Assembly: GCA_900546245.1 (NCBI GenBank)
Contig: URBY01000001.1
Location: 10,038 to 74,037, forward strand
Direction: 5' to 3'
DNA: 64,000 bases
Origin: an uncultured Mycoplasmatota bacterium
GTDB taxonomy: Bacteria > Bacillota_I > Bacilli_A > RF39 > UBA660
This document shows, piece by piece, positions 20,513 through 64,000 of the stretch; position 1 is the first letter of the stretch, and every line of letters begins with the position of its first letter. A program made the position numbers and the translations under genes. A model generated the notes under the pieces. That model was not told the origin of the DNA. It saw only the letters and a list, made by a program, of their open reading frames with translations, and searched no databases.

Positions 20513-20587
20513 ATGAGCCTCCATATTATTATTTCTTATAATAATTAAACCATTTTTTTTAAATAAAATCAATAAAATACAAAAAAA

Positions 20588-20607
20588 TTATGAGTTATTA
20601 CTCACAA
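20588..20607 (-). terminator. Candidate terminator after the 221-aa gene
   Basis: TTATGAGT-(4 nt)-ACTCACAA stem with an A7 run on the plus strand, giving a U-run on the minus transcript. Confidence 0.35.
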
Positions 20608-21253
20608 TTTTCTTATTTTCTATTAAACATATTAAATTCTTCAATTTTATAAATTTACTATCCTTATTTTTTGTTATATTTATAAGCTTACTATATATTC
20701 TATCTACATCATCTGTTTTTTCATTATAAATTTCATAAAATATATATTTAAGTTTAGAATCCTCATTATTTTTTAACATTTTTTCTAGTTTATTTAATAA
20801 ATATTTTTGAATTTCTCTTTCTTCTCTTGTGCAAAAATTTAATTTTTTATTTTTTTTATTTGTTACTTTGTAATCAATTATAGAATATTTAATATCAGAA
20901 ACATAATCAAGTATTTCCTCTTCTTCATCAACACTTATATTACTTTTCATATAACTTTTTCCATCTGAATCAAATTCTAGTGCAACTACACTTTTTTCAC
21001 AAGCAAAAACACATGAATACTTAATTATTTTAATTGAATTAGGCGCATATACTTCAGTTTTATCTAAAATTAAATTTAAAAAATTTTTGCTTACAATAAT
21101 ATCATTATTTTTTATACTAATAAAATCTTCATAACTTACTTTAAATACAGGTATTTTTAAAATAAATTCTACTTCATCTTCATCTTTCCATTCATAAAAT
21201 TCATATAAATTATTTTTGTTAAAATTTAATGTTATATCATAAATATAATTCAT
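20588..21253 (-). CDS. Hypothetical cytoplasmic protein, 221 aa
   Basis: Strong AGGAGG RBS. No recognisable motif. Confidence 0.45.
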   Translation of the reverse strand: MNYIYDITLNFNKNNLYEFYEWKDEDEVEFILKIPVFKVSYEDFISIKNNDIIVSKNFLNLILDKTEVYAPNSIKIIKYSCVFACEKSVVALEFDSDGKSYMKSNISVDEEEEILDYVSDIKYSIIDYKVTNKKNKKLNFCTREEREIQKYLLNKLEKMLKNNEDSKLKYIFYEIYNEKTDDVDRIYSKLINITKNKDSKFIKLKNLICLIENKKIVSNNS

Positions 21254-24403: not shown

Positions 24404-24492
24404 GAAAAAAATGCACAAAATATTGAAAATATTGTGCATTCTTATATTTTTTAAGCACTATTTTGCGCAATCATTGTGCATTTTTTATTCTT
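24404..24492. repeat. Direct repeat copy A (about 87 bp) carrying two palindromic hairpins; the 3' flank of the Fic gene
   Basis: …AATGCACAAAATATTGAAAATATTGTGCATT…TGCGCAATCATTGTGCATTTTTTATTCTT. About 85% identical to copy B at 25604-25690. Includes the stop and last codon of Fic. Confidence 0.6.
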
Positions 24493-25567
24493 TTCCTACA
24501 AATACATTATATATTTCACTATATCTATATGCTAGTTTTGCATAATTATCATCAATATCTAATATACCTATTTTAACAAGCTCATCAATTAATGTTGAAA
24601 CTGTATTTCTTGATACACCAGATTCTTCTTCTATCTCTTTTTTTGTAAATACAATTTGATGTATTAATGATGGCATAATTCTATAAACAGCATTACTATT
24701 GAGTGTTTTAATTTTTTGCATATCTTTATTATATATTTCTTTAATTCTATTTATTTTAGCAATATAATTATTACACTGTTCAATAATACACTGCAAAAAG
24801 AATTTAATAAATCCAGCCATATTACCTTTTCTACTTTCATTTAAATATTTATGATAACTTGGTTTATAAAGTTCAATTACTTCTGATAAAAAAAGTATTG
24901 GTTTATCATCAGTTAACATTGCAAGTTGTATTGGAATAAGTGCTCTACCTAATCTTCCATTACCATCTCTATATGCATGTATTGTTTCAAATTGAGAATG
25001 AGAAATAGCCATATTTACAAATATTGGATCAATAAATTCATCATTCATATATTTAAATAAATTATCTAAAAGAATTGGAACATCTTCCGGAATAGGAGGA
25101 ACATAAATAGCCTCTTTAATTGTACATCCTCTTGGACCAATCCAATTTTGAATATTTCTAATTTTTCCAGGTTCTTTATTTTGACCTCTAACACTATCTA
25201 ATAATATCTTATGAATATTATTTACAAAAACTAAATCTATTTTTCTATTTGTCTTGATATAATTTTCCGAATATTCAATTACTTCTTTTAAATTTTGTAT
25301 CTCACTCTTCTCATCATTATTTGGCATATATTTTATATAATACATATCATCTTGAGAAATTTGTGTTCCTTCAATTTGTGTAGATTTCAAACTTTCGCTT
25401 AAGATAATTGAATCTAAAAAATATCTTGAGTCAAAATCAATATTTTTTAAATAAGTTTTATACTCTCCATATTTTTCATTTGCCTCAGATAATAACTTTA
25501 ATAACTCTTTATCAATTTTATATTCAATTGGTAACTCATTTACTTTAATTGGTTCCATTTTCATCAC
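24485..25567 (-). CDS. Fic-family protein (AMPylation-type motif, probable N-terminal inhibitory helix, C-terminal winged-helix), 360 aa
   Basis: Canonical Fic motif HAYRDGNGRLGR. An upstream STQIEG matches the (S/T)xxxE(G/N) auto-inhibition motif. C-terminus is wHTH-like (…VSRNTVSTLIDELVKIGIL…). Confidence 0.8.
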   Translation of the reverse strand: MMKMEPIKVNELPIEYKIDKELLKLLSEANEKYGEYKTYLKNIDFDSRYFLDSIILSESLKSTQIEGTQISQDDMYYIKYMPNNDEKSEIQNLKEVIEYSENYIKTNRKIDLVFVNNIHKILLDSVRGQNKEPGKIRNIQNWIGPRGCTIKEAIYVPPIPEDVPILLDNLFKYMNDEFIDPIFVNMAISHSQFETIHAYRDGNGRLGRALIPIQLAMLTDDKPILFLSEVIELYKPSYHKYLNESRKGNMAGFIKFFLQCIIEQCNNYIAKINRIKEIYNKDMQKIKTLNSNAVYRIMPSLIHQIVFTKKEIEEESGVSRNTVSTLIDELVKIGILDIDDNYAKLAYRYSEIYNVFVGKE

Positions 25568-25603
25568 CTATCGAGATATTAACATTTTTTTTATTAAAAG
25601 TAA

Positions 25604-25690
25604 AGAAAATGCACAATATTTTCGATATTTTGTGCATTTTTACTTTTTTTAGACACTATTTTGCACAATGATTGTGCATTTTTTATTCTT
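25604..25690. repeat. Direct repeat copy B (about 87 bp) at the 3' end of the T4CP gene
   Basis: …AATGCACAATATTTTCGATATTTTGTGCATT…TGCACAATGATTGTGCATTTTTTATTCTT. Perfect palindrome TGCACAAT-G-ATTGTGCA plus a T-run, so it is terminator-like. Includes the stop and last codon of the coupling-protein gene. Confidence 0.6.
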
Positions 25691-27926
25691 CAAAGAAGAA
25701 ATCATCAAAGAAATCATCATAATCAGAATCATTATCTTTTTTGACATTATTTTTTTGTTCTTCTTTATTTTCATTATCCATTTTTTCTTTATCATCTTTT
25801 ATTTTAAAGTTTTCAAAATCAACCATATTACTATGAATAATCTCATTTACATTTGGATCAGTTGATATATTTCTTGTATCAAATAATTTTTCTTCTTCAC
25901 TATTACTCTTAATAGGTTCTGGTTCTGATGCAGGTTTATCTATATTTTTTTCTTCTAAATTATTAATTACTTCTTCTTTAGATTCTATTTTTTTATTTTT
26001 TTCTGCTTCTTGTTTCTTCTTTTCTTCTTCCTCTTCTTTTTCAAGTTCAGCAATTTTAGCATCAATTTCCTTGATCATTTTATCAATATCCATATCTGAA
26101 CCCATACCTTTTATACCACCAAAAGGATTCATACCAAAAGGTGAACCACCACCCATTGGTGAAGAAGAATTACCATCAAAACCTGCATTTTGAAGCTTTT
26201 CTTGTTTTTGTTTTCTAACAAATTCTTTCAAATCAAATGTTTTAATCTCATCCATAGTTCTTTGTGGATAAACAACATTTTTTCCATAGTGATCAACACC
26301 TCTACCAAAACCAAAATCAGTATCCCAGTCCATTTTTAGTTTTCCCCTGAAAGGCGCACATCTTTGTTTAATTAATATGATTTCATCAGGCTTCATTCTT
26401 TGAAGTTCTGATACAGTAACAAGAGGTCTTGTTTCTTCTTTTTTATCTTTACCAACTCTAACAAGTTTATCACCACATAATTTACTAATTTCTTCCAAAG
26501 CTGATAATTCTCCTGTTAATAAATATATTAAGTTACCACAGTTACCACGAATAGTTTCAGCATCATGATCACCATAATTTTGTTTTAACTGTGCAAAATT
26601 CTGAATGATAAATGTAAATCTAATTTGTCTTGAACGAGCAGCAGTAACCATTGTTGTAATATCTTTAAACTTAGGCATGTTAGCAAACTCATCAAGTAAG
26701 AAATTTGTTCTAACAGGAAGTTTTCCACCATGTTGTTGTGCAACATTTATTAAAGCTTCATAACATTGTTTAACAAATATAGTAGCAAGTGAATGGTATG
26801 TTGTTTTTTCATCTTGTATAATCATAAATACTGCTGTTGGTTTTTCACCTATACTATCCATATCAAAATCACTCTTAGAAAGCATTTCAGATAAGTTTTT
26901 AGTAACAGCTAGTGTTTTAACCTTGTCCTTTAATACAGATACGATACCACCTTTTGTTTCATTTGGTGCATTAACTGTACCTAAAGCATTAACACATGCT
27001 GGCGAAGCTGGATCTTTAGCATTAAAATATTCCTTTAAATAGTTTGATGCACCATATTTATCTTCACCTGTTGTCATCATTAAATTAACACTATTTATAT
27101 TTATTTCTTCTTCTGGAGCATCCTCAAATAAAGCAAGTGATAAACCTGTTAAATAACTAGCAGCAGAATTTTGCCAGAATGGATCTTGTCCTTGACCATC
27201 TACAACTATATTAAGTGATAAGTCATTTAAAAGTTCATTTGCTTTATCAAAATTACCTTCCTTTTGATATTTGTATGGTAAATGATAAGGATTCCAACAG
27301 TTACCTTTTTGTGGATCACGGAAATTAAGTATTATAATTTGATAACCTAGTTCCCTCATTATTCCAGAATTATCATTATATATTTCACCTTTAGGGTCAG
27401 ATATAATCATTGATTCTCTACCCTTTATAAGCATTTGAACAGTTGGATTAATTATACCTTGAGTTTTACCTGAACCTGTCGCACCAATAACAAGTGTATG
27501 ACTTTCACCATTATCTACATAAGCTGCTTCTTTATCATATACTAAAGGTGTACCACCTGCTTTTGCTTCTTTTTCAACATATGGAACTCTTACAACACCT
27601 TTGGCTTTTTTTATTTCTCCCTCTTTTGCCCATCTAGCATAACCATCTTCTTTTTTCTCACTAGTATAACCAAAACCTTTTTCTCTAGTAAAGAAATATG
27701 ATGATGTACTTGCAAATAGAAATGCAATAGAAGCAATCCAAAGCATTATTGTTACACCAATATATTTTGGAGTAAACGCTAAAAATGGATTTAATCCCCA
27801 AGGTGTACCTTCATTTATAATAAATGAGAAATTAAGTACACATAAACATACTAAATAAAGCATAAAAACAGATATTACTGCAAACGCTATTACATCTTTT
27901 TTTTCTGCCCTAAACTTTAATTTCAT
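25683..27926 (-). CDS. Type IV secretion coupling protein (VirD4/TraG-family T4CP), 747 aa
   Basis: N-terminal TM helices, Walker A VIGATGSGKTQG, Walker-B-like FLLDEFANM and an acidic/charged C-terminal tail. Confidence 0.7.
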   Translation of the reverse strand: MKLKFRAEKKDVIAFAVISVFMLYLVCLCVLNFSFIINEGTPWGLNPFLAFTPKYIGVTIMLWIASIAFLFASTSSYFFTREKGFGYTSEKKEDGYARWAKEGEIKKAKGVVRVPYVEKEAKAGGTPLVYDKEAAYVDNGESHTLVIGATGSGKTQGIINPTVQMLIKGRESMIISDPKGEIYNDNSGIMRELGYQIIILNFRDPQKGNCWNPYHLPYKYQKEGNFDKANELLNDLSLNIVVDGQGQDPFWQNSAASYLTGLSLALFEDAPEEEININSVNLMMTTGEDKYGASNYLKEYFNAKDPASPACVNALGTVNAPNETKGGIVSVLKDKVKTLAVTKNLSEMLSKSDFDMDSIGEKPTAVFMIIQDEKTTYHSLATIFVKQCYEALINVAQQHGGKLPVRTNFLLDEFANMPKFKDITTMVTAARSRQIRFTFIIQNFAQLKQNYGDHDAETIRGNCGNLIYLLTGELSALEEISKLCGDKLVRVGKDKKEETRPLVTVSELQRMKPDEIILIKQRCAPFRGKLKMDWDTDFGFGRGVDHYGKNVVYPQRTMDEIKTFDLKEFVRKQKQEKLQNAGFDGNSSSPMGGGSPFGMNPFGGIKGMGSDMDIDKMIKEIDAKIAELEKEEEEEKKKQEAEKNKKIESKEEVINNLEEKNIDKPASEPEPIKSNSEEEKLFDTRNISTDPNVNEIIHSNMVDFENFKIKDDKEKMDNENKEEQKNNVKKDNDSDYDDFFDDFFFEE

Positions 27927-27969
27927 AAAATCTCTTCCTTCTTATCAATTTACTATATTATAACAAAAA

Positions 27970-27993
27970 AATAAGTATTTTGAAATACTTATT
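27970..27993 (-). terminator. Intra-operon intrinsic terminator/attenuator between the hydrolase and T4CP genes
   Basis: Perfect 10-bp stem AATAAGTATT / AATACTTATT with a 4-nt loop. The A-run on the plus strand gives a U7 run on the minus transcript. Confidence 0.45.
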
Positions 27994-27996
27994 TAA

Positions 27997-30900
27997 TTAT
28001 TGGTTTGCATATCTATTATAAATTTGATTTGCATTCGATACTCTTGAATTCTGAGCACTTATTGATTGGTCTGCAGGACGTTCAAACTTAAGCATAAACG
28101 CTTTTGTAGCAGAATCAACACTAACATTAGGATTTTGCAATGTATTATATAGGTCACTAAACTGAGTTGGAAGTATTCTATTAAGATAATCTATTTGCAT
28201 TGCAGTATCACCAATAGACAATTTTCTTTCAGTTTTTGCATAATCATACAATCCTTCTTTTAATGTGTAGTAAGTCCACTGGACAATACCATATCCTCCA
28301 CCATTTGGTCCATTTTTAGAAAATGAAGTACGATTTATAGACCCTTTATCTACATTATCTGTATAAGTAATACTCGTTTCTGTAACACTACCATTCCCAG
28401 ATGTATCACCTTGTAAAACTCTACCATCAAATGTTGCCGCAGATTCAGTATACATATTTCCCATTATACCAGCAACAGCAGTTTTAGGATATCCTAAACC
28501 TACTAAATAGTTCCAAACTGCTTCTTCATTATTTGAACCAGCAAATATACCTCCAGAAGAACATTGAATAAATAAATTTGTTGGATCAATAGCTGAATCC
28601 TGATCATTATGAAATTCAAAATGTAACCCTGGATTAGATGAAGCACCAATCACTCCAATTTTAGTACCTTTTGATACATTAGTTCCTTTTGTAAGAGTTA
28701 CAGAATCTAAATTATTATATACTGAGTAAAAATTATATTCATTATTACCAATAACAATATTATGTTTTATCTTAACCCAAGATCCATATGTATCATTCAC
28801 TGAACCACCAATAGCATTTTTTATATTATTTACAAGGATAGCTTGACCACTAGAATTTAAATGTAAACCATCATTTGTATATGAAGACTTAATATATCCA
28901 TTTGATTCATTAAGTCCATTTGTTACATCAACATATGTTGCCCAAGAATTTGATGAACACCAAGAACTCATAGTTTGATTAAAGCTATCTATCATAGCAT
29001 TTGTAACAGAACCTCTATACTTAGTTCCAACATGATATACACTATTAACATATATTTGAGCACTTGGATATCTTGTATGAAGACTATTTAACATATTTTG
29101 CATATTTGAAGTCTGACTAACATTATTTACCCCTAACATAACTGATATACCATTTGCAGTACTTGGCAAAGCAATTCTTGTTCCTAACACAGTACCACTA
29201 CCATTACTTGCTACGCTCTCCCACTGTGCTGGAGTAGAACTTGTAACCGCCGCTACTGTGTTATTTTGACCTAAACCTTCAAGATTACTTTTAATTCCTA
29301 CATATCTTGAATCACCTATAAATAAATAATTTGATATTGATGATGTACTTTGATTTGAACTTCCACTTGTTCCAACACTATCAACAACACCATTTGCAAT
29401 AGCAAATACATCAGTTCCAGCTGAAACACCTGCAGTAGATGAATTTAAATCAACACCTCCATGAAATCCAGCAGAAGTAACACCAAAAGAATTATTTTCA
29501 CCAAAAGAAACCGTTGTTCCTTCTGGTATATTTACAGGTTTTTGAAGTTCGGATACTAAATTTGCATCAATTGCTCCCAAACAACTATCAGCATAACCTT
29601 CACTATCAGAATCAATATATTGTAAAAATATATCTTTAAATAAATTTTTATTTGATACTATATCTTTATATAAATATTCCTTTTTTTCTTCTCTTGCATC
29701 TCCTGTAAGTCCACCTAACATACTTCTAAACTCAGGCATACGTTCAAAATAGTAATTCATTAAATAATTTTTATAATTTTCTTCATCAAAAGCAAATTGT
29801 CTATATGTTACTTTTATACCTGTAAGTGATACATCAACATCTGTTATATCTGCAATACCATAAAATATATCACTAACGAGCACTTTAAACGTATCTACAA
29901 AATCTCCACCAATTAATGATAAATTTTGAAAATATTCTCCGGAATATTTTGATCCTATGGCATCCGCATATATTTCATTAAACGGTAATAATATCGAAGT
30001 AAATGTATAGGCTACGAAATCAGATAGCATATCCTTTACATCATTAGCGATATTACTACCATATTCATCTAAAAAATCGGATAAAGATACTGTTTTTGTT
30101 GGCCCTTTTCTCTCTGATAAACCAAATGAATTTGTATAAAATTGGTTCCTAGCTAGTTTACGTAACCTATATATTTTACCAACATTATATGTAAGGCCAT
30201 CTTCTCCTACAGTTTCTTTTGACATGTCATATTTTTCTCTCAAATATTCTTTTACAACATTTTGACTACCAGAATTAGACCCTATTGATGATCCATCAAG
30301 AACAGAATCATCATCCATTTCACCATATTCAGTATCATAACCCATGCCTTCTGTATAAAATAATGTTGCCAAAATAAGAGGTACATCCATACCGGTTTCA
30401 TCGTTTGAACAACCATATCTATCGCACAAATCATCTAATTCATCATAAAAAGCCTCTTTTGAATCTTGAAATCCAAAACCATTATAAAAATTAGTTAACT
30501 TTTCACTAAAATCTGCAGTCTTAGTAATAGCTTCATCTATATTACCCCAAACTTCCATTAATGGACCTAGTATTAATTCTATTACAAAAAATGCAAGTGC
30601 TAAACCTAGAATTAAACCTGCTGCATATGGTGCAATTGCAAGCAATATTTTTTTTGCTACCTTTTTGGCAGCTGTTTTTACAGCTGCCTCAGCAGTACTC
30701 TTAGCAGCTTCTATAGGATGCCTTGCTTGATATGCTTTAGATTTTAAATTATCTTTTTTTGCATTAAAAATATCTTTTTTAGCATCTTTTAAATTATTTT
30801 TTTCTTTTTTCTCATTTGCTTTTGCTTCTTTAGCTTCTGATTTAGCATTTTTATATTCTTCCTTATCAGAACTAGTTCTTTGTCCTCTTGGGATAGAATT

Positions 30901-39525: not shown

Positions 39526-40605
39526 CTAGTCCTTTTCAATTAATTTCATATCAAGTGTACTTTCTTTTCCATCTCTTATATATGTTACTTTAATAGTATC
39601 ACCTGTTTTATGTTCGTATAAATAATATCTAAGTGTACTAACGTTAGTTACTTTATTATCATCAAATTTAGTTATTACATCTCCAACTTTTAATCCTGAT
39701 TTTTCTGCTGAATAACCATTTTCTAATTTTACTATTACAACACCTGATTTTATATTACTACCTAAATTTATGTTATATCTATATAAACTATATTTATTAC
39801 TTGCTTCTATTACTGATATACCTATTGATGGTCTTTTTATTTCTTCTCCTTTTTCTAGATATGTAACATAGTTCTTAACATCATTTATTGGTATTGCAAA
39901 TCCCATACCTTCTATTTCTTCTGTTGCAAGTTTCATAGATGTAATACCTATTACTTCACCAGCTAAATTAACAAGTGGTCCACCACTATTACCAGGGTTT
40001 ATTGCAGCATCTGTTTGTATTACTTTTGCTATTATAGAATTAGATTCTATCATTCTATCTTTACCAGATATAATACCTCTTGTTATTGAGCCACTATAAT
40101 CTGATCCCATAGGGCTACCAATTGCTATTACTGTTGATCCTAAATTAATATTATCACTATTGCCTAAAGTAGCAACCTTCTTAACTTTACTTTTATCTAT
40201 TGAAAGAACAGCTATATCAGTATATTCATCACTACCAAGTAATTTAACCTCTACTGTTTCATTGTCTGATAAAATAACTTCTATTTTATCTGCAGAATCT
40301 ATTACATGATGATTTGTAAGTATATAACCTTTATTATCATCTACTTTATATACAAATCCTGATCCACTACCTATATTTTGATTATTTTTATAGCTTTCTA
40401 CAGTTACAACAGAATCATATGCTTTATCTATTGAATCTTCTATTGCTGTTTCACTTAATTTTGTTTCATTAACTGTTTTCTTTTCTGTTATTACTTTTGA
40501 CTCTACTGGAAAATATTTTAAATATATAATAACTGCAAATACAGCACTAAATATTGTGAATACATAAGCTAAAAAATATTTAAATAACCTTTTTCTATCT
40601 TTCAT
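39526..40605 (-). CDS. htrA: HtrA/DegP-family serine protease with PDZ domain, 359 aa
   Basis: TM anchor; catalytic triad contexts TNHHV, DIAVL and GNSGGPLVN; a C-terminal PDZ-like region. Confidence 0.8.
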   Translation of the reverse strand: MKDRKRLFKYFLAYVFTIFSAVFAVIIYLKYFPVESKVITEKKTVNETKLSETAIEDSIDKAYDSVVTVESYKNNQNIGSGSGFVYKVDDNKGYILTNHHVIDSADKIEVILSDNETVEVKLLGSDEYTDIAVLSIDKSKVKKVATLGNSDNINLGSTVIAIGSPMGSDYSGSITRGIISGKDRMIESNSIIAKVIQTDAAINPGNSGGPLVNLAGEVIGITSMKLATEEIEGMGFAIPINDVKNYVTYLEKGEEIKRPSIGISVIEASNKYSLYRYNINLGSNIKSGVVIVKLENGYSAEKSGLKVGDVITKFDDNKVTNVSTLRYYLYEHKTGDTIKVTYIRDGKESTLDMKLIEKD

Positions 40606-40616
40606 ATTATCATCCT

Positions 40617-41552
40617 CTATTCTATATTTATTAAATCCATATAATTTTCTGGGAAACCTAATGTATCATATAATTTATTAATTTTTACTGATTTTATTTG
40701 CCATGTTAAATCTTGAAGTTTAAGATTTATTTCATCCATCATATGCATAAATTCATCTTTTGTAAGCATTTGTTTTAATATTATTATTAACGCAAATATA
40801 TCATTTTTTCCTTTTATGTATTCACCAAATTCATCTTGCTTTATTTTTAGTTCATTATGATATTTAGTATTAGAAATATATTTTTGTGTTCTATGATCAA
40901 ACACTATATCTTCATGTGCACATAAATTTCTATAATTTGCAAGTAACGATAAATATACTTCCATATCTTCCATTTCAATTCCATAAAGATCTGCTATTTC
41001 TTTTTGATCCTCCGGTTTTAGTATTCCATAAAGTTCATTTATTAAACCAAATGACAGCACTTTTACAAGTACCCATAAAGGAATATAACCATAATTTGTT
41101 ACATAATGAAGAGTCGCACTATGATTTTGACTATTTACTCTAATCTGTCTTTTCATTTTATTTATTACATCACTAACTCTTCTTTTATTTTTATTGTCAG
41201 TTGTAAAATTTGATTCTTTTAAATAATTTTTCTCTTTATAACCATATTTAACAGATAATTTATAAGATATTATGCTTTTAATATTATTTTCTACTATAAG
41301 CAAATTTTTAAATAATATATTTCTAAATTCTCTATCAAACATAAAAATTGCATATAATTCATCAAAGGTTGCACCTTTTACAAATTTCTTTTCTTTTGAT
41401 GAAACCATTAATACTCTTCTATAACCATTTATAAAAAAGTAATTTTCTTTTAAAAGTATATTTCTTGCTTCTTCTTCATCATTTATAGTAAGACCTTTAC
41501 TTTTAAAAATTCCAAGTTGTTCATCAAGAGTTTTAAATTCCTTTTTATTCAT
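40617..41552 (-). CDS. Abortive-infection protein, Abi_2 (AbiD/AbiF) family, 311 aa
   Basis: N-terminus …LDEQLGIFKSKGLTINDEEEARNILLKENYFFINGYRR… is typical of Abi_2. 311 aa. Confidence 0.65.
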   Translation of the reverse strand: MNKKEFKTLDEQLGIFKSKGLTINDEEEARNILLKENYFFINGYRRVLMVSSKEKKFVKGATFDELYAIFMFDREFRNILFKNLLIVENNIKSIISYKLSVKYGYKEKNYLKESNFTTDNKNKRRVSDVINKMKRQIRVNSQNHSATLHYVTNYGYIPLWVLVKVLSFGLINELYGILKPEDQKEIADLYGIEMEDMEVYLSLLANYRNLCAHEDIVFDHRTQKYISNTKYHNELKIKQDEFGEYIKGKNDIFALIIILKQMLTKDEFMHMMDEINLKLQDLTWQIKSVKINKLYDTLGFPENYMDLINIE

Positions 41553-46637: not shown

Positions 46638-47330
46638 TTATTCATTATTTAAATTTATTCCATCTATACAATTTTCATAAATCCAAATCTTTAAATTATC
46701 CATGATACCACTTTCATAATATTTAATAAGTTTTTCATAAAACTCTGCTTGTTTATCTTGTGCAATACTTATAATTCCATTTCCATTATCTATCATTATT
46801 TTATTGGCAAACAACATTGCTACCCTTTTATTACCATCAATAAACATTTGTCTTCTCATAATATATAACATCACTTCAATTGCAATTTCTGTTGTGGTTT
46901 TATCTTGTTCACTAAGTAATTCTTCTAATTCTTCTTTTATTTTACTTTCTATAGGAAAATCAGGTTTCCAAGTTGTACCTCCTATATTAACTGGAGTAGT
47001 TCTAAGTTTACCAAGGTTTTGTTCTAATACTAGTTTATCTACAGTCAACTTATGAATATAACATAAAGTATTGTAATCACTTTTTATATCTTTATTTTCT
47101 AATATAAATTCCCAGGCATATTTTAAATTATTTATAGCAATTATATTATCTACTGTAAGCCCATTTACTATTCCACCATCATATATTGCTTGTGTTTCTG
47201 GATATGTAACACCTATACCTTCTAAATTTGCACTTTTCCATATATAGTCAACAATGTTTCTTTTTGCTATAAATACATTTTGTTCTCTTGTTAAATTATA
47301 TTTATTTTCCATATGTAAACACCTCATCAT
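46638..47330 (-). CDS. Fic/Doc-family protein with a Doc-type motif lacking the catalytic His (QMFIDGNKR), 230 aa
   Basis: SANLEG (inhibitory-helix-like motif) and RRQMFIDGNKRVAM, which matches Doc HxFx(D/N)(A/G)NKR except for Gln in place of His. Confidence 0.6.
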   Translation of the reverse strand: MMRCLHMENKYNLTREQNVFIAKRNIVDYIWKSANLEGIGVTYPETQAIYDGGIVNGLTVDNIIAINNLKYAWEFILENKDIKSDYNTLCYIHKLTVDKLVLEQNLGKLRTTPVNIGGTTWKPDFPIESKIKEELEELLSEQDKTTTEIAIEVMLYIMRRQMFIDGNKRVAMLFANKIMIDNGNGIISIAQDKQAEFYEKLIKYYESGIMDNLKIWIYENCIDGINLNNE

Positions 47331-52939: not shown

Positions 52940-53917
52940 ATGAAGAGTATAGATACAATAAAACCAGTATTTTATATTACAGAAGATAATAAAAAAATTA
53001 TAAGAGAAATAGAAAATAAACTTAATTTAATTGTTATGGATGATAATGATAAAAAAAGAAAATTAAAAGTTAAATCTAAGGTAAGATCAATCCACTCTTC
53101 ATTAGCAATTGAAGCAAATTCTTTATCATTAGAATCAGTTAAAAATATTGTTGACAACAAAATGGTTTTGGGCGATAGAAAAGAAATTCAAGAAGTTAAA
53201 AATGCTAATGAACTATATGAACATATAAATGAATATAATTGGAAAAATGAAAGTGATTTTTTAAAAGCACATACATTAATGATGAAATATTTTGATGATG
53301 ATAATGGATTTTATAGAAATCACGTTGAAGGAGTAAAAAAAGGAAATGAAATCATTTATACCGCACCACATTCTATATTAGTTCCATCTCTTATGAAAAG
53401 TTTATTTAACTTTATAACTGAAAATGAAAATAAAATTCATCCACTAATTTTATCAAGTATATTTCATTATTATTTTGTGTATATACACCCATTTAGTGAT
53501 GGTAATGGTAGAATGGCCAGATTTTGGGTAAGCTTGATTTTAACTAATTGGAACTCAAAGTTTGAATATATTCCTATTGAAGAAGAAATTTATTTAAATC
53601 AAACAAAATATTATGATTCTATTGCACAATGTCACATTAATGGAAATGTAAATGTATTTACTGACTTTATGTTAATGTGCATTAATTCAGCATTAGAAAA
53701 AACTACCCAAAAAACTACCCAAAAAAGAAAATTAAATAATAATCAGTTAAAAATTATAGAATTAATAAAAGAAAATCCAAAAATTACAAGAAATAAATTA
53801 GCAAGCGAATTAAATATTACATCAGATGGTATTAAATATAATTTAAGAAAATTAGTTAATAATGGTATTATTGAAAGAATTGGACCAAACAATGGTGGAT
53901 ATTGGAAAATAAAATAA
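52940..53917 (+). CDS. Fic-family protein (canonical HPFSDGNGRMAR) with C-terminal winged-HTH, 325 aa
   Basis: Motif HPFSDGNGRMARFW. C-terminus …LKIIELIKENPKITRNKLASELNITSDGIKYNLRKLVNNGIIER (wHTH). AAGGAG RBS. Confidence 0.8.
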   Translation: MKSIDTIKPVFYITEDNKKIIREIENKLNLIVMDDNDKKRKLKVKSKVRSIHSSLAIEANSLSLESVKNIVDNKMVLGDRKEIQEVKNANELYEHINEYNWKNESDFLKAHTLMMKYFDDDNGFYRNHVEGVKKGNEIIYTAPHSILVPSLMKSLFNFITENENKIHPLILSSIFHYYFVYIHPFSDGNGRMARFWVSLILTNWNSKFEYIPIEEEIYLNQTKYYDSIAQCHINGNVNVFTDFMLMCINSALEKTTQKTTQKRKLNNNQLKIIELIKENPKITRNKLASELNITSDGIKYNLRKLVNNGIIERIGPNNGGYWKIK

Positions 53918-56370: not shown

Positions 56371-59300
56371 TTATTCTACAATAATATTTTTACTAGAAAC
56401 TGTCACAACAGGTCTAATTTCTTTCTTTATATTTGCAATATCATCTTTTATAGTTGATGAGCTTTTACTTATATATTTTGCATAATTTTTTACATTTGTA
56501 CTTTCTATTATATTTCCATATACATCATATTTTTGTTTCATATATACTGAATTCATCAACCAGAAATCACTATTTCCATATAACCAAGATAAATCAGCAT
56601 TATTACTTGAAATAAGTTTGTTATATTCAGTTTCTGTTAATAATCTTACTTTATAATTTTTATATATATTTGACTGACATTTACCTTCTGATAAAAGTGT
56701 TCCACCATAAGATGCTGCTTGTAATCCTGATGCATCATCACACACACTATTATCATATAATATAGGTAAATTCAATGTATTCATATTAACAAATTCATTA
56801 TTTATAAATCCATTAATTAAAGAATCACTCCATTTATATATGTCATTATTAGATGTAGTATGTCCTAATTTAGTTGATATTGTTCCTGAATCTGCTAATA
56901 AAGTTAATATTTGACCATTATTATCACTATTTTCAGTATTAATTACATGGAAGTCAACTCCACCATATCTTATTGCTTCACCAATACTATAACTATTATA
57001 ATCAGTTGATGCATCAGTTGCTTCACTTTCTGGTTCATATGAACTTATTTCTAAAAGTGTTACCGTATTAATAAAACTTCTAGCTTCTAATTGTGTTGGC
57101 ATATTTAGCATTATTGTAAGATATCTTTTTTCACCTGGCATAATTAAATCATTTTCAAGTGCTACACTCCTAATTTCATCATTTGAAACAAACCAATCTT
57201 TATTTGCAGGATCATCTATATTAAATGTTAATCCAACAGGAATATCTTCATTTATTAATTTTACATATCCTGGTGTTGAAGAATTGTTTGTAATTTCAAT
57301 TCCATAGTATACTTTTGCAGATGCACGTAAACTATTTTTTACACTTAATGAAACCTTTTTTTCATTATTATAAGTTAAAATACTATTCGAATTATTATAA
57401 TTTAAATCTATTTTTGTAATATATTTATTTATAGAAAAACCAAATGTTTTTCTTGAAATTAGACCAATATTCATATCAGTTACTGATTCTATTTCTCTAG
57501 TAACCTTAATACCATCAGATTCTTCAGGAGTTTTCTTATTACTTATTTCAATCATATTATCAGAAACTTTATATCCATCTGAATCAATAGCAGTATTTTC
57601 ACTAGCGTATCTTAATGTTAAATCATATACAGAATTATCAAAATTTGCTCTTATTTTATATCTACCAACATTTAAGTTTTTAAATATATATTTACCATCT
57701 TTATCTGTAACTGTTGTATCTACTTCTGTCATATTATTTTCTGAATCAAGTTTATATAATGTAACCGGCATATCACTATAATATGTATCGCCTATATCTT
57801 CTACACCATTTTCATTATTATCAATAAATACTCTACCTGAAATATTTCTACTTATAACTCTTGCCTCTATTTTATTTGATTCATTTTGAGCATATGTTTT
57901 AGAAGCACCAACATAGGAATTAATATATTTATTAGAATAATTATTATCTTTAGGTTTAATCCATAATTTAATATCATCAGCATATGAATTTGCATTTACT
58001 GAAATATTAGTTATTTTTATTGCAGTTGCATCTACATATTCATTTAATGCATTACATTCCTTAAATTCATTCTTTTCATTAAATACTTCATTTGATAATT
58101 TATTATATTCTGAATTTGAACAATATACTTTTACATTTCCAAAAGTACTTGGTAATTCAAGTTTAACTTTATATGTACCATTAAACTCAGAACCATTTTT
58201 ATCACCATTACCTGGTAATATATCCATAATAGCATAGTCTTTTATATTATTATTTGTATTATTATAAATACTTAATAAATAATTAAATTCACTATTCTTT
58301 TCTAATTTAGATCCTTTATCACCAATTTTTTGTGAAACAATTACATTTTCTATACCTGTTGCATAAATCGTATATGAACCTGTTAAATATCCAAAATAAC
58401 TTGTATCTGTTTCACCATTTACATTTATTGCATCAACTCTTGATTCAACAGTTAATGGAATTGAACTTCCTTTAAGTGTTGGCGATATTGTTGCTTTAAA
58501 ATTAATATCTTTTATTTTCATATTAGGCTTAGTATATGGAAGCTTATACGTCAAATATGTGTTATCTGGATCACTTGTAACTTCAGGAGTCCCTAAATCT
58601 TTATCAGGAACATAAACAAGTCCATTTGGTACTTTTACTCTAACACTTAAATAATTAATATACCATGTATCATCCGCACCAGAATTCATACTATCATCTG
58701 TAATTGTTGTTTTAATATTATAATAAATAGTTTCTCCATTATTTGCATTAAATCTATTTTTTAATGTACCATCATTATTTTTATTAGTAACAGTTACTTC
58801 TTCTCTTGATGTAAAATTAACTATTTTTAATGTATCCCCCCAAGGGCTATCAGTATCTATACTAGCAATATCACTTCCATTATATGTTGTTTTCTTATAG
58901 TTATTTGGATTTGTTATACTATTTTCATCATTTGTTACTCTAGGCGCAAAATATGAGATTTTAGCATCATAATCTGATGATGAAGCTAAAGAAGTTGCTT
59001 GATAAGTTCTTGTTATATCAGATACATCTCTAACTCTTACATTAGCATCAATAGTTACTTTTATATTATCAGGTAATTTTATACCTTTCTTAGTTTGTAC
59101 AATTATCTTTGTAATTGGAATTTCTATATTTTCTTTATCTTTTGCTTCACTTACTTTTTTAAATGTTTGTTCTACACCTGATTTTGCTTTAATGCAAGGA
59201 CCGCCATATAAATTCATTATTTGATCACTTAAATAATTATTTATATTTTTTTGAATATTAGCACAGCTTGACTTAACTATACTTAAGTCTTCATCAGAAA

Positions 59301-60945
59301 TATTTGATTTAGTTTCTGAAACATAATTAGAATTATTAAAATCACCTGTTACATATGTAATTTCAAAATCATCTGGTGATATTTTTTTATCACTTACACC
59401 TTCTATATTTATTTTTATATCATCTGTTAATCTTAAAGCATTAGGATCTATTTTAATTACTTCTTTTAATCCTTGATCTGACATAGTTTTCTTATAATTA
59501 AAAGTTGTTTTATATATTAAATTTGTACCCTTTGATACAGCACCTGTTCCATTTGTATCTTTTGAAACTTTAGATGAACCATTATAGAATTCACCAGTTA
59601 ATGAATAATCAATTTCTTCATAATATTTATTTACTAAATTTTTACTTATTGTTGGAAGAGTAATTAATGAACCATTTGTATCTTGAATCTTAAAGTTACT
59701 GATGCTTAAAGATGTTGTAATATCATTTTTACCATCATTTACTGTTCTAGGTGAAAATACAGTTAATGCATATGTTCCTAAATAATGTTCATTTTTACCA
59801 ATATTACTTCCTTTGGCACTTACGGTAGCGCTATTATATGTTACTTTATAACCATTTATAATACCATTAAATAAATCATTAGTTTTTTTAGATAATTTAA
59901 CATTCCCAACATTTTTTATAAGTTTTGAATTATCAACTTGTGATGTACTATAAGGTTCATTTACAATTACTGATTCTATTTCAGATAAATTATCTTTTCC
60001 ATAAAGTCTTCCCCAAGTTTCCTCCATTGAAACGACTTTTGAAGAACCATTTTGATTAACGTTTACATCAAATGTAATATCATTACCATTTGGCATTGAT
60101 AAACCTTTTATACCTTTTGAATTATTTCCGTTTATTTTATATCCAAAAACATAAGTTAAATATCTACCTAAATTATTATTATATGTTGCCTTTTGTCCTT
60201 CTGATTCTTGAGTTAATAATTCTAAAGAAAAATCACCAGATTTTGAAGATACTACTGTTGGCATATAATTTAAAAATCCATTAATAGTACTTACCATACT
60301 ATATTTATTAGCATTTTCACTATTATATTCATAATTATATTTCTCAGTATCAAATGTTATACTGCCCAAATTTACTATATAATTTTCATCTGTATTTGTA
60401 CTTTCTTGGATTTCAAATTTAGGACTTATTTTCATACCATTTGGAGCACCTAAAACATATAATGTTACTTTCGCATCAAATGATCCATAAGTATCTACAC
60501 CATTAAATGAATATATATGACTTGTTTCTCCTGGAGCACTATCTTTATCAAATGTTACATACTTTGAAACATCTTCTGGTAAAGTTACTTTAATATTTAC
60601 TGTTCTTTCTTCATAATCATCATTACCATTTTTATCCATTATTTCATAATTAAAATTATAAGATAATTCATCAAAAGATCTAACTATTCTATTTTTTGAA
60701 TTATTGTCATTACCAGGAATATAACCTGTTACACTAGAATAATTTGCTGAATTTGAATAATCTAATCCATCACTATTATCAAAATCAGAAATACCTGTTT
60801 CTATACTAGTTAAACTTATGTTTTTAATTGCAACCTTATTTTGAGCAACATCTGCACTAGCAAACCTATTATATACAAAAAAACTAATTACAATTAAAAT
60901 TAACACAAAAAATATTATTAATATTTTTTTATTTTTAGTCTTCAT
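56371..60945 (-). CDS. Giant secreted adhesin-like protein (1524 aa), paralog of 16463-20512, with SdrD-B/CnaB and DUF11-like domains plus an extra C-terminal Cys-containing domain
   Basis: AGGTGA-supported ATG at 60945 (MKTKNKKILIIFFVLILIVISFFVYNRFASA signal). Shares the NYYGGPCIE-type motif (NLYGGPCIKA), an SdrD-B-like segment (SGRVFIDNNENGVEDIGD…) and a DUF11-like segment with the 1349-aa protein. Confidence 0.6.
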   Translation of the reverse strand: MKTKNKKILIIFFVLILIVISFFVYNRFASADVAQNKVAIKNISLTSIETGISDFDNSDGLDYSNSANYSSVTGYIPGNDNNSKNRIVRSFDELSYNFNYEIMDKNGNDDYEERTVNIKVTLPEDVSKYVTFDKDSAPGETSHIYSFNGVDTYGSFDAKVTLYVLGAPNGMKISPKFEIQESTNTDENYIVNLGSITFDTEKYNYEYNSENANKYSMVSTINGFLNYMPTVVSSKSGDFSLELLTQESEGQKATYNNNLGRYLTYVFGYKINGNNSKGIKGLSMPNGNDITFDVNVNQNGSSKVVSMEETWGRLYGKDNLSEIESVIVNEPYSTSQVDNSKLIKNVGNVKLSKKTNDLFNGIINGYKVTYNSATVSAKGSNIGKNEHYLGTYALTVFSPRTVNDGKNDITTSLSISNFKIQDTNGSLITLPTISKNLVNKYYEEIDYSLTGEFYNGSSKVSKDTNGTGAVSKGTNLIYKTTFNYKKTMSDQGLKEVIKIDPNALRLTDDIKINIEGVSDKKISPDDFEITYVTGDFNNSNYVSETKSNISDEDLSIVKSSCANIQKNINNYLSDQIMNLYGGPCIKAKSGVEQTFKKVSEAKDKENIEIPITKIIVQTKKGIKLPDNIKVTIDANVRVRDVSDITRTYQATSLASSSDYDAKISYFAPRVTNDENSITNPNNYKKTTYNGSDIASIDTDSPWGDTLKIVNFTSREEVTVTNKNNDGTLKNRFNANNGETIYYNIKTTITDDSMNSGADDTWYINYLSVRVKVPNGLVYVPDKDLGTPEVTSDPDNTYLTYKLPYTKPNMKIKDINFKATISPTLKGSSIPLTVESRVDAINVNGETDTSYFGYLTGSYTIYATGIENVIVSQKIGDKGSKLEKNSEFNYLLSIYNNTNNNIKDYAIMDILPGNGDKNGSEFNGTYKVKLELPSTFGNVKVYCSNSEYNKLSNEVFNEKNEFKECNALNEYVDATAIKITNISVNANSYADDIKLWIKPKDNNYSNKYINSYVGASKTYAQNESNKIEARVISRNISGRVFIDNNENGVEDIGDTYYSDMPVTLYKLDSENNMTEVDTTVTDKDGKYIFKNLNVGRYKIRANFDNSVYDLTLRYASENTAIDSDGYKVSDNMIEISNKKTPEESDGIKVTREIESVTDMNIGLISRKTFGFSINKYITKIDLNYNNSNSILTYNNEKKVSLSVKNSLRASAKVYYGIEITNNSSTPGYVKLINEDIPVGLTFNIDDPANKDWFVSNDEIRSVALENDLIMPGEKRYLTIMLNMPTQLEARSFINTVTLLEISSYEPESEATDASTDYNSYSIGEAIRYGGVDFHVINTENSDNNGQILTLLADSGTISTKLGHTTSNNDIYKWSDSLINGFINNEFVNMNTLNLPILYDNSVCDDASGLQAASYGGTLLSEGKCQSNIYKNYKVRLLTETEYNKLISSNNADLSWLYGNSDFWLMNSVYMKQKYDVYGNIIESTNVKNYAKYISKSSSTIKDDIANIKKEIRPVVTVSSKNIIVE

Positions 60946-60969
60946 ATGCTTCACCTATTCTTTAATAAA

Positions 60970-61036: not shown

Positions 61037-61711
61037 TTACTCAAAATCATAACTCCAACTAATTTTTGTAATTTTTCCATATTTATAAGAAATATTTAAT
61101 CTTGAAATATTAGATACAGTATCACCTACTAATGCATCTCTATTTATGTATACTACCTCTTTATCATTTCTTATACCTAAATAAATTGTATCTTTTATTT
61201 CTTCTTCATTTAATGCATCTACTGAGTAATTTCCATATAAATATGTTCCTTTTTTATTTTCAACTTTAAATTTCTTTATAGTTTTGATAATTTTATCATT
61301 TACCTTTATATTTCTGCTTACTTTATATTTATTATTTGTTACCTCTACTTTAGTTAACATATAATCACTATAATTTTCTTTTAAAGTTAATTTTAAGCCC
61401 TTATATTCTAATATTTTATAACTATATTTATCTTTAGTTATTTTATCTTCTTTTACGGGAGTACCAAATTTCTTTTTTACTTCTTTTTCACTTGTTCCAT
61501 ATTTTACACCATCTATTACTAAATCAGACATTGAAAATATTTTATTATTATTTTTACTTACCATAACTGTATCAAATTCTCTGTAATTTCTTGAAGCAAG
61601 TAATAGGATTAATAATATTACAATTATTATAGATGTTATTTTTAGAATTAATTTATCTCTTTTTAACTCTTGTTCTATTGTTTTTTTAGTTTTCTTTTCA
61701 TTCTTTTTCAT
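61037..61711 (-). CDS. N-terminally membrane-anchored hypothetical protein (no Cys), 224 aa
   Basis: Signal-anchor LILKITSIIIVILLILLLA followed by a β-rich polar domain. Lies between the sorted protein and the giant protein of locus B. Confidence 0.4.
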   Translation of the reverse strand: MKKNEKKTKKTIEQELKRDKLILKITSIIIVILLILLLASRNYREFDTVMVSKNNNKIFSMSDLVIDGVKYGTSEKEVKKKFGTPVKEDKITKDKYSYKILEYKGLKLTLKENYSDYMLTKVEVTNNKYKVSRNIKVNDKIIKTIKKFKVENKKGTYLYGNYSVDALNEEEIKDTIYLGIRNDKEVVYINRDALVGDTVSNISRLNISYKYGKITKISWSYDFE

Positions 61712-61719
61712 ATTTTCAC

Positions 61720-64000
61720 CTACTTAGCCTTTTTCTTTAATATCATTAATAAAGATATTAAAGCAACTAATATTGATATTATTAATCCATATTTTATTAC
61801 AGTTTGTCCTGTTTGTATACTTACTATAAGTTCAGCACTTGAACTTGATTTTATCTCTATCTTTTCTGTTTTTCCTTTATTTACTATTATTGAATTTCCA
61901 TATACATTTCCGCTTCCATCTACAAAGAATGTCGCTACATTTGGATTTTTATTTAATTCTTTTCCTGGTGCAGCTTTTGTTTCTACTATTCTATATTGTC
62001 CTTCTTCTAAATAATATACTGTTGCACTTCCATTTTTTGTTTCTATCTTTGTATTTGTTGTATTACTATCTGCTTTATAATAAAATCCATTTTCTGTTAC
62101 TTCTTTTGTAACTGTCACATCATGATATTTTTTATTATCATCTAATTTTTGAAGTTTAAATTCTGCTCCATCTAATAGTTTATTATATTCATCATATTTA
62201 TAGAACGTAAATGGTGTTGGTTTATTTACAAGTTCCTTATATGTATCTGCTATATAATCTTTGTTTGCTTCTATTGTTACCATTGTATATCTATCTTCTT
62301 CTTTTTTTGGAAGTGAATATCCTTTTGGTGCTTTTACTTCTTCTATTATATAACAATGTCCATATTCTAAATATTGGATTAATGCTTCTCCTTGTTTTAT
62401 TTCTACTTTTTCATTTTTTGTATTTTCTGTATTTTCAAATTCTGACCATGTTCCTAGATATTTTACATATGTTAGTTTTGTAATATCATTTACTGGTATA
62501 TCACTACATTTTGCATCTTCTCTATCTGTACATGTTTTTATTGTATCTGTATCTTTCTCTGGTCTATTTTCATATACTCCATCTCTTATTGTTTTTAATT
62601 TTAATAATGTCTTTGGTTGATTCATTGCTGATAAATTTGCATCACATGTTGTTCCTTCATATACTTTAAATTCTGCACCTTCTAGTAACTCTCCATCATC
62701 AGAATATTTTCTTATTAATAATGATGTTGGTTTATTTGGAACATCTACTTCATCTACTTTTACTGTTGTACTTGTTACAGTAAATGATGTTTCAGCATTT
62801 ACTCCTTCTGGTAATGTATAATTTTTTGGTGCCACTGTTTCAAGTAATACATAATTATAATCTGCTTCTAAATATCTAAGTACTAGTATTCCATTATATG
62901 GATGAAGTTCTGTTACATAACTTGCACCTTTTTTTACATCACTATCACTTATTTTTTTGTATACTTCAACACCAGATAATCCTGCTTCATCATTAGGATC
63001 TTCTTCATCACCAGCAATAACTGCACGTTTACTAAATTTAACAAGTGTCATACCATTTTTTTCTCTTTCTTCTTTTGTTGTATAATTTCCTGGATGACAT
63101 TTTTCATTCTTTTTACATTTATATACTTCAAATGTAGTTGTTTCATCATTTATTAAATAATTATATTTAGAGTCTCTTTTTTCAAATCTAACTCTTGTTG
63201 GTTTATCTTTAATAATATTTGTTGTACTGTTATGAGTTGTATCACCACTTGTACATGGTATCTTATATTCAACACTCGTTGGTGTATTTGTAGTATTTTC
63301 TTTAACGTATACTGATCCTTCTGGAACACTTATTTCTTCCATAGTATACTTTTTACCCCTGCATAAATTAGTTATTTTTATGTGTCCACCACAAGCATGA
63401 AGTTCAGTACCATTACTATCTGTTTGATCAGAACTTACATATCTATATTCACTATAACTGCTATCACTTGTGCAATCACCAACATCTCTTACTTTCTTAA
63501 GAGTTAAATACTTACCATTTTCATCTTTTAATTTAAATACAATCTTATCAAAATCATTTCTTTCTTTAGCATCGACAAAATCAACATTTTCATCGCTTTT
63601 ATTTTTATCAGCCGCATCATAATATGAATAATAATCTTTTTTAGTAAATGTAATTTCTGTTGGTTTATTTTCTAATTGTTGTTTAGATATTTCATATTTA
63701 CCATTTCCGCATGCACTAGCATTTGAATTAGAACAATTATTTATAGTGAATTTATAACTGCTTTCTTCTTTATATTCTGGGTAGTAATATCCTACACATT
63801 CACTATAATTTGATGATGCTTCACATGTATTACTATTTTTTTCCTTAATACTGTATGTTCCAACAGGTAAATGATGTATTTTTATTTTTCTTGTATTATC
63901 TAGATGTAATCCTGTTACTTTGTCCCCACTAATACCATCTACATCATTTTCACTATATTCATAAATTCCATCTTTTAATATAAATGATACTAAATTATTA
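61720..64000 (-). CDS. Large secreted protein, partial (open to the window end): Cys-rich N-region + CnaB/SpaA-like domains + C-terminal sorting-signal-like anchor (SIQTGQ + TM + KKKAK)
   Basis: The reading frame is uninterrupted from 61720 to 64000 on the minus strand; the track's 540-aa ORF is only its C-terminal part from the first Met. C-terminus …AELIVSIQTGQTVIKYGLIISILVALISLLMILKKKAK. Confidence 0.6.
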   Translation of the reverse strand, partial: NNLVSFILKDGIYEYSENDVDGISGDKVTGLHLDNTRKIKIHHLPVGTYSIKEKNSNTCEASSNYSECVGYYYPEYKEESSYKFTINNCSNSNASACGNGKYEISKQQLENKPTEITFTKKDYYSYYDAADKNKSDENVDFVDAKERNDFDKIVFKLKDENGKYLTLKKVRDVGDCTSDSSYSEYRYVSSDQTDSNGTELHACGGHIKITNLCRGKKYTMEEISVPEGSVYVKENTTNTPTSVEYKIPCTSGDTTHNSTTNIIKDKPTRVRFEKRDSKYNYLINDETTTFEVYKCKKNEKCHPGNYTTKEEREKNGMTLVKFSKRAVIAGDEEDPNDEAGLSGVEVYKKISDSDVKKGASYVTELHPYNGILVLRYLEADYNYVLLETVAPKNYTLPEGVNAETSFTVTSTTVKVDEVDVPNKPTSLLIRKYSDDGELLEGAEFKVYEGTTCDANLSAMNQPKTLLKLKTIRDGVYENRPEKDTDTIKTCTDREDAKCSDIPVNDITKLTYVKYLGTWSEFENTENTKNEKVEIKQGEALIQYLEYGHCYIIEEVKAPKGYSLPKKEEDRYTMVTIEANKDYIADTYKELVNKPTPFTFYKYDEYNKLLDGAEFKLQKLDDNKKYHDVTVTKEVTENGFYYKADSNTTNTKIETKNGSATVYYLEEGQYRIVETKAAPGKELNKNPNVATFFVDGSGNVYGNSIIVNKGKTEKIEIKSSSSAELIVSIQTGQTVIKYGLIISILVALISLLMILKKKAK

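Follow-up and report, generated by a model that had tools for sequence, protein, structure and literature searches.

Which pathway reads the C-terminal tail shared by two large surface proteins encoded in a 64,000-nucleotide stretch of contig URBY01000001.1 (assembly GCA_900546245.1; hereafter the window, meaning the whole stretch analysed), from an uncultured Mycoplasmatota bacterium? The two proteins, denoted A and B after their loci, each end in a threonine–glycine motif, a hydrophobic segment and a lysine-rich end, the arrangement of a sortase signal, but with isoleucine where sortase motifs carry proline. To our knowledge, proline and threonine are treated as the fixed points of such motifs, the proline being near-universal. 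We propose, with a probability of roughly 0.6, that the last ~45 residues of B and of its paralogue A are a non-canonical sortase-type signal for sorting to the cell wall. Its probable components are the pentapeptide [N/S/T/G]-I-[Q/S/R]-T-G, a four-residue spacer, a membrane segment led by tyrosine and a lysine-rich cytoplasmic stop-transfer tail.

Anatomy of the tail at the two loci

The locus-B open reading frame, a single open frame of 759 codons on the minus strand (63999 to 61720), enters from beyond the window end. It encodes the C-terminal part of a surface protein (61720–64000, minus strand) with repeated SpaA/CnaB (PF17802) domains and a tail containing IQTGQ. The protein ends in ...AELIVSIQTGQTVIKY followed by an 18-residue hydrophobic segment and KKKAK; the terminal translation reads ...KIEIKSSSSAELIVSIQTGQTVIKYGLIISILVALISLLMILKKKAK up to the stop codon, and over a longer stretch ...NKGKTEKIEIKSSSSAELIVSIQTGQTVIKYGLIISILVALISLLMILKKKAK. 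Retranslation agreed with the original prediction, which had described a 2.3-kb partial frame ending in SIQTGQTVIKY, a transmembrane segment and KKKAK, both in this description and in its coordinates.

Five elements precede the locus-B stop codon (61720–61722), all on the minus strand. The conserved segment SSAELIVS (61819–61842), found in the SpaA passenger family only, lies directly upstream of the motif IQTGQ (61804–61818), which together with the preceding serine reads S-I-Q-T-G, in register with L-P-x-T-G. The spacer TVIK (61792–61803; family consensus x-[VR]-[IV]-[KR]) connects the motif with the hydrophobic membrane segment YGLIISILVALISLLMIL (61738–61791), which begins with a near-invariant tyrosine and contains a conserved leucine. 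The positively charged tail KKKAK (61723–61737) completes the chain. Proline-less motif peptides of the SpaA-family tail read ELIVNIQTGQTVIK, ELIVNIQTGQTVIKY and ELIVSIQTGQTV.

The full B gene encodes ~1,771 residues, with a range of 1,763–1,810 residues across the metagenome contigs (L001–L006) that carry an identical 224-residue neighbour gene. At its N terminus, a lysine-rich n-region is followed by a 17-residue hydrophobic segment predicted to direct export. PF17802 (the SpaA/CnaB prealbumin-like domain) matches B in three stretches (E 2.2e-24), and at least three such domains are present.

The locus-A paralogue (13891–16512, minus strand) has 873 residues and consists of a signal peptide, a thioester domain (PF08341), four SpaA domains (PF17802, E 4e-36) and the tail. 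The signal peptide, MNKKLRLFIILFISIIIFFPFRNVSA, read from the sequence and the structure model, ends in ...FRNVSA ahead of WE and is modelled as a helix at residues 17–32. By sequence, the repeats of A match sortase-anchored pilins and adhesins of solved structure (4oq1; BcpA, 3kpt; and 3phs). Its C terminus is ...AELIINISTGQQRIRY followed by a hydrophobic segment and NKKMGKK, the full end being ...AQAELIINISTGQQRIRYAIIITVLVVAIAGLIILNKKMGKK up to the stop codon. The motif ISTGQ lies at 13981–13995, the membrane segment at 13915–13968 and the basic tail NKKMGKK at 13894–13914, all on the minus strand.

The threonine of the TG pair stands 30 residues before the last residue in B and 31 in A, and the hydrophobic run is 18 residues long in each. 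Both tails have the layout of a sorting signal, with TG 17–45 residues from the C terminus, a hydrophobic segment and a basic tail. In a six-frame scan of the whole window, neither I.TGQ nor a TG followed by a hydrophobic run and a basic end occurred anywhere outside the C termini of A and B.

Over the final 228 residues, A and B share 33% identity (E 3e-19). They are therefore paralogues, and what had been taken for two independent occurrences, arguing for a functional motif, is one inherited module seen twice. That the motif is functional rather than a chance match is borne out instead by the tails of orthologues, a profile search that recovered 178 clusters and an alignment of 132 tails, described below.

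Conservation of the tail

Among 19 tails, comprising those of the B orthologues and of the A paralogue, the threonine, the glycine and the tyrosine are kept without exception, and the tails of the B orthologues are 43–73% identical to that of B. A search of 1.84 billion cluster representatives with a 42-position profile of these tails recovered 178 clusters at E<=1e-3, of which 49 reach E<=1e-10. Among the 150 matches listed, the match lies at the C terminus or within about 10 residues of it, bar one spurious repeat protein; the proteins are either full-length, with 700–4,800 residues, or short C-terminal fragments. That protein, P0044, was the top match and was rejected as a spurious repetitive translation.

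In a hmmalign alignment of 132 distinct tails, whose figures partly reflect selection because the matches were picked by a profile weighting the threonine, glycine and tyrosine columns, threonine and glycine are present in 132/132 each, the tyrosine six residues after the glycine in 129/132, the helix leucine in 127/132 and the first tail lysine in 124/132. The separate set of 19 orthologue tails shows the same invariance of threonine and glycine. Position 2 of the motif, the 'proline' position ahead of x-T-G, is occupied by isoleucine in 109 of the 132 tails, by proline in 8 and by valine in 6; position 1 is asparagine in 62, threonine in 22, serine in 18 and glycine in 14. The upstream segment has the consensus [AS]xAE[LF][IV][IV]x, with alanine in 113/132, glutamate in 108/132, leucine in 95/132 and isoleucine in 98/132.

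Register with LPXTG signals

The orthologues of B align without gaps through the motif, as SIQTGQ, GIQTGQ, NVQTGQ, GPRTGT and SPRTGQ. Since the GPRTG and SPRTG members require no gap, the isoleucine sits in the proline position. Neither window tail has proline there itself, B reading S-I-Q-T-G and A N-I-S-T-G. The curated model TIGR01167 (LPXTG_anchor) aligns to the B tail over model positions 4–33, starting at TG. When 43 representative tails were compared with the NCBIfam C-terminal sorting models, 32 matched TIGR01167 at E<=1 (best 5e-7) and 26 matched EF0750_LPXTG, a model of a sortase-dependent tail. Models of non-sortase signals (Heimdall-CTERM, PEF-CTERM and cyano_PEP) gave weak matches in 1–4 of the 43, all with E>=0.027. 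The sortase LPXTG anchor is thus the sole curated sorting-signal model that the tails approach.

The likeness to the LPXTG signal (TIGR01167/PF00746), as in Staphylococcus aureus protein A and SpaA-type adhesins, extends to the tripartite layout, a motif ~30 residues from the C terminus, the T-G register, SpaA/CnaB and thioester passengers and a disordered linker context, with the LPXTG anchor as the best-matching curated model. The tails differ from it in having isoleucine for proline (109/132), asparagine, threonine, serine or glycine in place of leucine at position 1, scores below the model cutoff for both window tails, and conserved residues on both sides of the motif (AELIV upstream; QxVIKY and the helix leucine downstream), and no cognate sortase was found in the loci examined.

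Sortase motif variants are numerous, and NCBIfam already curates NPXTG, LAVTG, LAXTG and LPxTATN forms, judging by its model names. A natural sorting signal with isoleucine at position 2 was not described in the literature searched or among the curated models.

The downstream part of the tail on a second passenger family

At the weak end of the profile match list stand cadherin-like (PF12733) proteins of ~470–800 residues, on contigs of 24–26% G+C. Their tails read ...RVWLPQTGQTVIKYSLII...KKKMDK, with a downstream part made up of TGQxVIKY, a membrane segment and KKK. The motifs of homologues include WIPQTGQ, WMPQTGQ, WQPQTGQ, FIAQTGQ, FLAQTGQ, WISQTGQ, WQAQTGQ, WVAATGQ, FLAKTGQ, FSPKTGN and VYPKTGN, and there are also LPQTG members; after each motif come x-[VI]-[IV]-[KRSN]-Y, then a helix, then a basic end. 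Within this family, precomputed Pfam hits to Gram_pos_anchor fall on the LPQTG members only. The AELIV stretch is missing, and the cadherin-like tail proteins do not adjoin an SdrD_B partner of the kind that accompanies A and B.

The part from TG onwards is therefore a portable signal, carried by unrelated passengers. The motif variants of the cadherin-like and SpaA families together show that position 2 varies within this lineage, being P, A, S, I or V, and that TG is fixed.

Structure models

The last 171 residues of B were modelled with AlphaFold2 from a 20-sequence alignment, with a mean predicted local distance difference test score (pLDDT) of 83.6 and a confident SpaA domain at residues 9–121. 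The pLDDT drops below 50 at residues 127–141 (EIKSSSSAELIVSIQ), and a helix runs from T142 to the end. The full-length model of A (27-sequence alignment; mean pLDDT 84.3) has a confident fold from residue 39 to ~823, pLDDT below 50 at residues 826–849 (VGEGAEAQAELIINISTGQQRIRY) and a helix at residues 849–870. The SpaA domains are modelled as confident β-sandwiches. In both models, the conserved segment follows the last SpaA domain, precedes the membrane helix and makes no contact with domains of its own chain. The possibility that AELIV forms the last strand of a folded domain was rejected, as it is disordered in both models. As modelled, the conserved segment acts like a juxtamembrane linear motif, which is what one would expect of a site recognized by an enzyme.

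Proposed mechanism

On this reading, Sec would export the SpaA/CnaB surface protein, which would then be retained in the membrane by its tail. A membrane-anchored transpeptidase would receive the disordered motif just outside the membrane; it would most likely be a sortase with relaxed specificity at position 2. The enzyme would cut between threonine and glycine, and the threonine would be joined to a peptidoglycan precursor. SpaA/CnaB and thioester-domain surface proteins are a class that is typically anchored by sortases. Genes for DacA, SpoIID, UppP and Lgt in the window show that the organism possesses a wall and lipoproteins; PBP2B is encoded in a related locus.

Evidence against a sortase signal

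Several observations weigh against this reading, foremost the missing enzyme. Sortases bear the signature TLxTC; neither this signature nor a relaxed regular expression identified a sortase in the 64-kb window or in the related loci L011–L083; these scans yielded only a TM2-domain protein (TLFTC) and other false positives. Gene tables list no sortase in the 10 kb beyond either window end, and none was found in 87 fetched loci (~1 Mb in total, highly redundant). The loci checked included at least five genome loci, 63 metagenome loci and the contexts of P0180, P0132, P0166, P0090, P0227 and P0222. An operon-linked, pilus-type sortase is thereby ruled out, and the negative has next to no bearing on whether a housekeeping sortase is encoded elsewhere in the genome, which exceeds 1 Mb. 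Because no sortase was found in these loci, cleavage by one is a step that we infer.

The original prediction had called the C terminus sorting-signal-like and had suggested looking beyond position 64000 for the rest of the gene and a neighbouring sortase. Its likeness to a sorting signal stood as regards layout, LPXTG register, passenger class and disorder. The argument from independence fell, as did the neighbouring sortase: extending the contig recovered the full gene, with no sortase within 10 kb.

The match to curated models is also incomplete. The B tail scores 13.9–14.7 bits against a TIGR01167 cutoff of 15.9, the A tail has no match to that model, and neither window tail has a match to Pfam PF00746. 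No NCBIfam cutoff was reached by the A or B proteins; with NF033902 (SpaH/EbpB major pilin), for which the cutoff is 95 bits, the scores are 52.6 and 50.0 bits.

Conservation further reaches well past the pentapeptide, to AELIV upstream and to the tyrosine, the helix leucine (often after a glycine) and the lysine downstream. Extended conservation of such length is unusual for sortase signals; the cause could be common descent or recognition by some other partner.

Among published motifs, the closest one with a hydrophobic residue at position 2 is NVQTG, from the Clostridioides difficile protein CbpA (CD3145), a CnaB protein of the collagen-adhesin type (PMC4155245). It was left uncleaved in vitro by SrtB, and CbpA is regarded as probably no true substrate (PMC4155245, PMC5569036).

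Comparison with known variant signals

The SrtB of C. difficile cuts (S/P)PXTG between threonine and glycine (PMC4155245), and the SPRTG and GPRTG motifs of some B orthologues fit that pattern. Several clusters of the tail family carry the exact NVQTG[Q/K] of CbpA. After this motif, the CbpA tail VGQNVQTGDQSNIMLDLALMFISLFFLIKNLTNKYLRRK, which continues NVQTGDQSNIMLDLALMF... (PMC4155245), lacks the pattern of QxVIKY, tyrosine and helix, as compared by eye. Sharing nothing after TG with the present family, CbpA is an analogue and not a member; since its NVQTG is uncleaved by SrtB, the precedent cuts both ways.

Class E sortases of Actinobacteria accept alanine at position 2, in LAXTG (PMC5148588). 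Natural sortases can therefore forgo proline there, and the cadherin-like family contains LAQTG, IAQTG and LAKTG. The comparison is limited by the different phylum and by the nature of the residue, alanine not being β-branched as isoleucine is, and neither a class E nor any other sortase was found in the loci examined here.

Alternative explanations

The alternative that survives best, which we nonetheless consider unlikely, is that the tail is a plain C-terminal membrane anchor that stays uncleaved, with the juxtamembrane AELIVxIxTGQxxIKY acting as a docking or hinge element, for example for the SdrD_B partner or for a conserved envelope component. It sits well with the missing sortase, with conservation beginning ~10 residues upstream of TG and extending into the membrane helix, and with the pairing of the tail protein, at both window loci and in L011–L016, with an anchor-less SdrD_B protein of 1,350–1,550 residues; the report that the NVQTG of CbpA is no sortase substrate (PMC5569036) also speaks for it. 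The cadherin-like proteins, however, carry the downstream half with its invariant TG in the absence of both AELIV and an SdrD_B neighbour, and some homologues have proline at position 2, which turns the motif into a bona fide SPRTG or LPQTG. A docking site only a few residues off the membrane would moreover sit beneath the wall, and an invariant T-G has no obvious role in a simple anchor.

More doubtful still is a sorting signal read by a lineage-specific membrane enzyme that is not a sortase, analogous to exosortase, archaeosortase or rhombosortase. In those systems, the motif and the transmembrane helix are recognized as a unit, and here TG, the tyrosine, the membrane-segment leucine and the lysine are conserved across two unrelated passenger families. 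Such an enzyme would be consistent with the lack of a sortase in the loci examined and of any curated model above threshold for the window tails. Against it, the loci have no conserved neighbour that could be a polytopic enzyme of this kind, and the tails do not resemble the known signals of this type (PEP-CTERM, PEF-CTERM and GlyGly-CTERM): the sortase LPXTG anchor gives the best model match and by far the most frequent one, with PEP-, PEF- and Heimdall-CTERM models matching weakly in 1–4 of the 43 tails. The canonical xPxTG of orthologues likewise points to sortase chemistry.

It is very improbable that the proteins are pilin subunits and the motif a polymerization signal for a pilus-specific class C sortase: the shared SpaA/CnaB domains, the sub-threshold SpaH/EbpB matches and PDB matches to BcpA and other pilins are in its favour, but the tail proteins and their partners have no [FWY]PK (YPKN-type) pilin lysine motif, the NF033902 cutoff is not reached, no sortase gene, normally a part of pilus operons, is adjacent in ~10 distinct locus types, and the chains, at 870–4,800 residues, are multi-domain and adhesin-like, A having a thioester domain of the tip type.

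A conserved two-protein surface module

The gene for A adjoins that of a 1,369-residue SdrD_B partner (16463–20572, minus strand), the end of which overlaps the start of the A frame. The corresponding partner at locus B is a secreted protein of 1,527 residues (56371–60954, minus strand), a paralogue of the first. The two partners are 25% identical over 1,420 residues (E 1e-50), and each has a signal peptide, one SdrD_B domain and no C-terminal anchor. The same pair, a large SdrD_B protein and a SpaA tail protein, is also present in L011–L016, the related loci for which the full gene layout was read. As the tail proteins are paralogous, the partners are paralogous and the pair is recurrent, these genes constitute one conserved two-gene module that occurs twice in this genome. 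It looks like a conserved two-component surface module.

Each tail protein examined adjoins a secreted SdrD_B protein of 1,350–1,550 residues, often with overlapping genes. Most of the length of the partners has no match to a family or a solved structure. As listed, the A reading frame overlaps the end of the partner gene by 50 nucleotides (16463–16512); its real start is probably an internal methionine just ahead of the signal peptide (MNKKLRLF...). The equivalent genes in L016 overlap by 11 nucleotides, which suggests translational coupling.

Between the tail protein and its partner at locus B, a 224-residue membrane-anchored protein is encoded (61037–61711, minus strand) that is conserved in B-type loci. 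It is 62% identical to the equivalent protein in L011 and has no family match; lacking cysteine and histidine, it is not a sortase. Small neighbours were considered as processing enzymes and rejected, none being present in all locus types. Ruled out individually were the 224-residue protein (no cysteine or histidine), a 221-residue protein (cytoplasmic), a 219-residue protein (lipoprotein) and a 184-residue protein (membrane-anchored repeat protein).

In some relatives, two giant tail-bearing proteins are encoded side by side, at L020 1–21409 (3,975 and 3,802 residues) and at L041 4775–18011 (1,801 and 2,371 residues), each with its own tail of the NIQTG or NIRTG type. Upstream of gene B, just past position 64000 (L003 1–318), lies the gene for a 2,594-residue cadherin-like protein with dockerin-like repeats at its end (GDVNGDGVIDISD...). 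An adjoining cadherin-like protein of 813 residues lacks the TG signal; its membrane segment is internal, and its cytoplasmic tail is long and acidic.

Another conserved C-terminal tail, ...[AS]GFADIF[IV]LT[IV]I[IV]LVYA.IIINL[IV][LI][RK].K, occurs in related genomes on proteins of 260–360 residues encoded near A-type loci (L011 1807–2760; L014 13433–14212; L052 14813–15754; L081 15805–16881). It may be a further lineage-specific membrane-anchor or sorting tail.

The organism and its genomic context

The window has a G+C content of 25.5%. Its A locus (13211–21253) is syntenic with scaffold FR893547.1 of Clostridium sp. CAG:433 (L013), where the flanking lipoprotein is 93% and the upstream 221-residue protein 69% identical, whereas the tail protein and its partner are 47% and 49% identical, respectively. 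This difference between the flanks (69–93%) and the surface pair (47–49%) suggests rapid diversification of the surface module, with the C-terminal tail conserved. Other carriers of the tail are metagenome-assembled genomes labelled 'Bacilli bacterium' from the guts of rabbit, sheep and human. The host is a prevalent human-gut bacterium, with 667 blocks of the assembly collection indexed for one of the flanking genes. The name given to an A-like member by the annotation pipeline PGAP is merely 'Cys-Gln thioester bond-forming surface protein'.

Elsewhere in the window, a block resembling an integrated conjugative element (~24485–41552) contains a Fic protein, a type IV coupling protein (25683–27926), a GDSL/M23/lysozyme cell-wall hydrolase (27997–31302), a VirB4/TraG-like ATPase (31313–33103), a TrbL-like protein (33954–36026), an Abi_2 protein (40617–41552) and several reading frames with no family. 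Three genes with Fic/DOC domains lie within 30 kb (24485–25567, 46638–47330 and 52940–53917), the third of which was called Fic with a helix-turn-helix domain solely on the basis of L003, where the identical gene has precomputed Pfam hits.

Implications for surface anchoring

The tail is probably a proline-less, extended variant of the sortase signal; in this CAG:433-like gut bacterium, it is carried by the anchored protein of a conserved two-protein surface module. A bolder proposal, to which we give little credence, is that the I-x-T-G tail marks a sorting pathway of its own in an uncultured, low-G+C lineage of gut Bacilli. That pathway would employ either a proline-independent subclass of sortase, reading the extended signal of upstream strand, TG, tyrosine and helix, or a non-sortase enzyme, reading motif and helix as a unit. 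Were it to exist, it would offer a handle on why the NVQTG of C. difficile CbpA is uncut by the only sortase of that organism.

Surfaceome predictions based on patterns or hidden Markov models rely on the proline and the threonine. Here, a set of large adhesin-like proteins bears a conserved signal that rules based on these two residues have overlooked. Should these proteins turn out not to be substrates of a sortase, their tail indicates an anchoring route as yet unknown. If they are substrates, the known substrate range of sortases would extend to β-branched residues at position 2, the tail and its enzyme would provide a natural substrate–enzyme pair for sortase engineering, and the tail profile would allow such surface proteins to be annotated in gut metagenomes.

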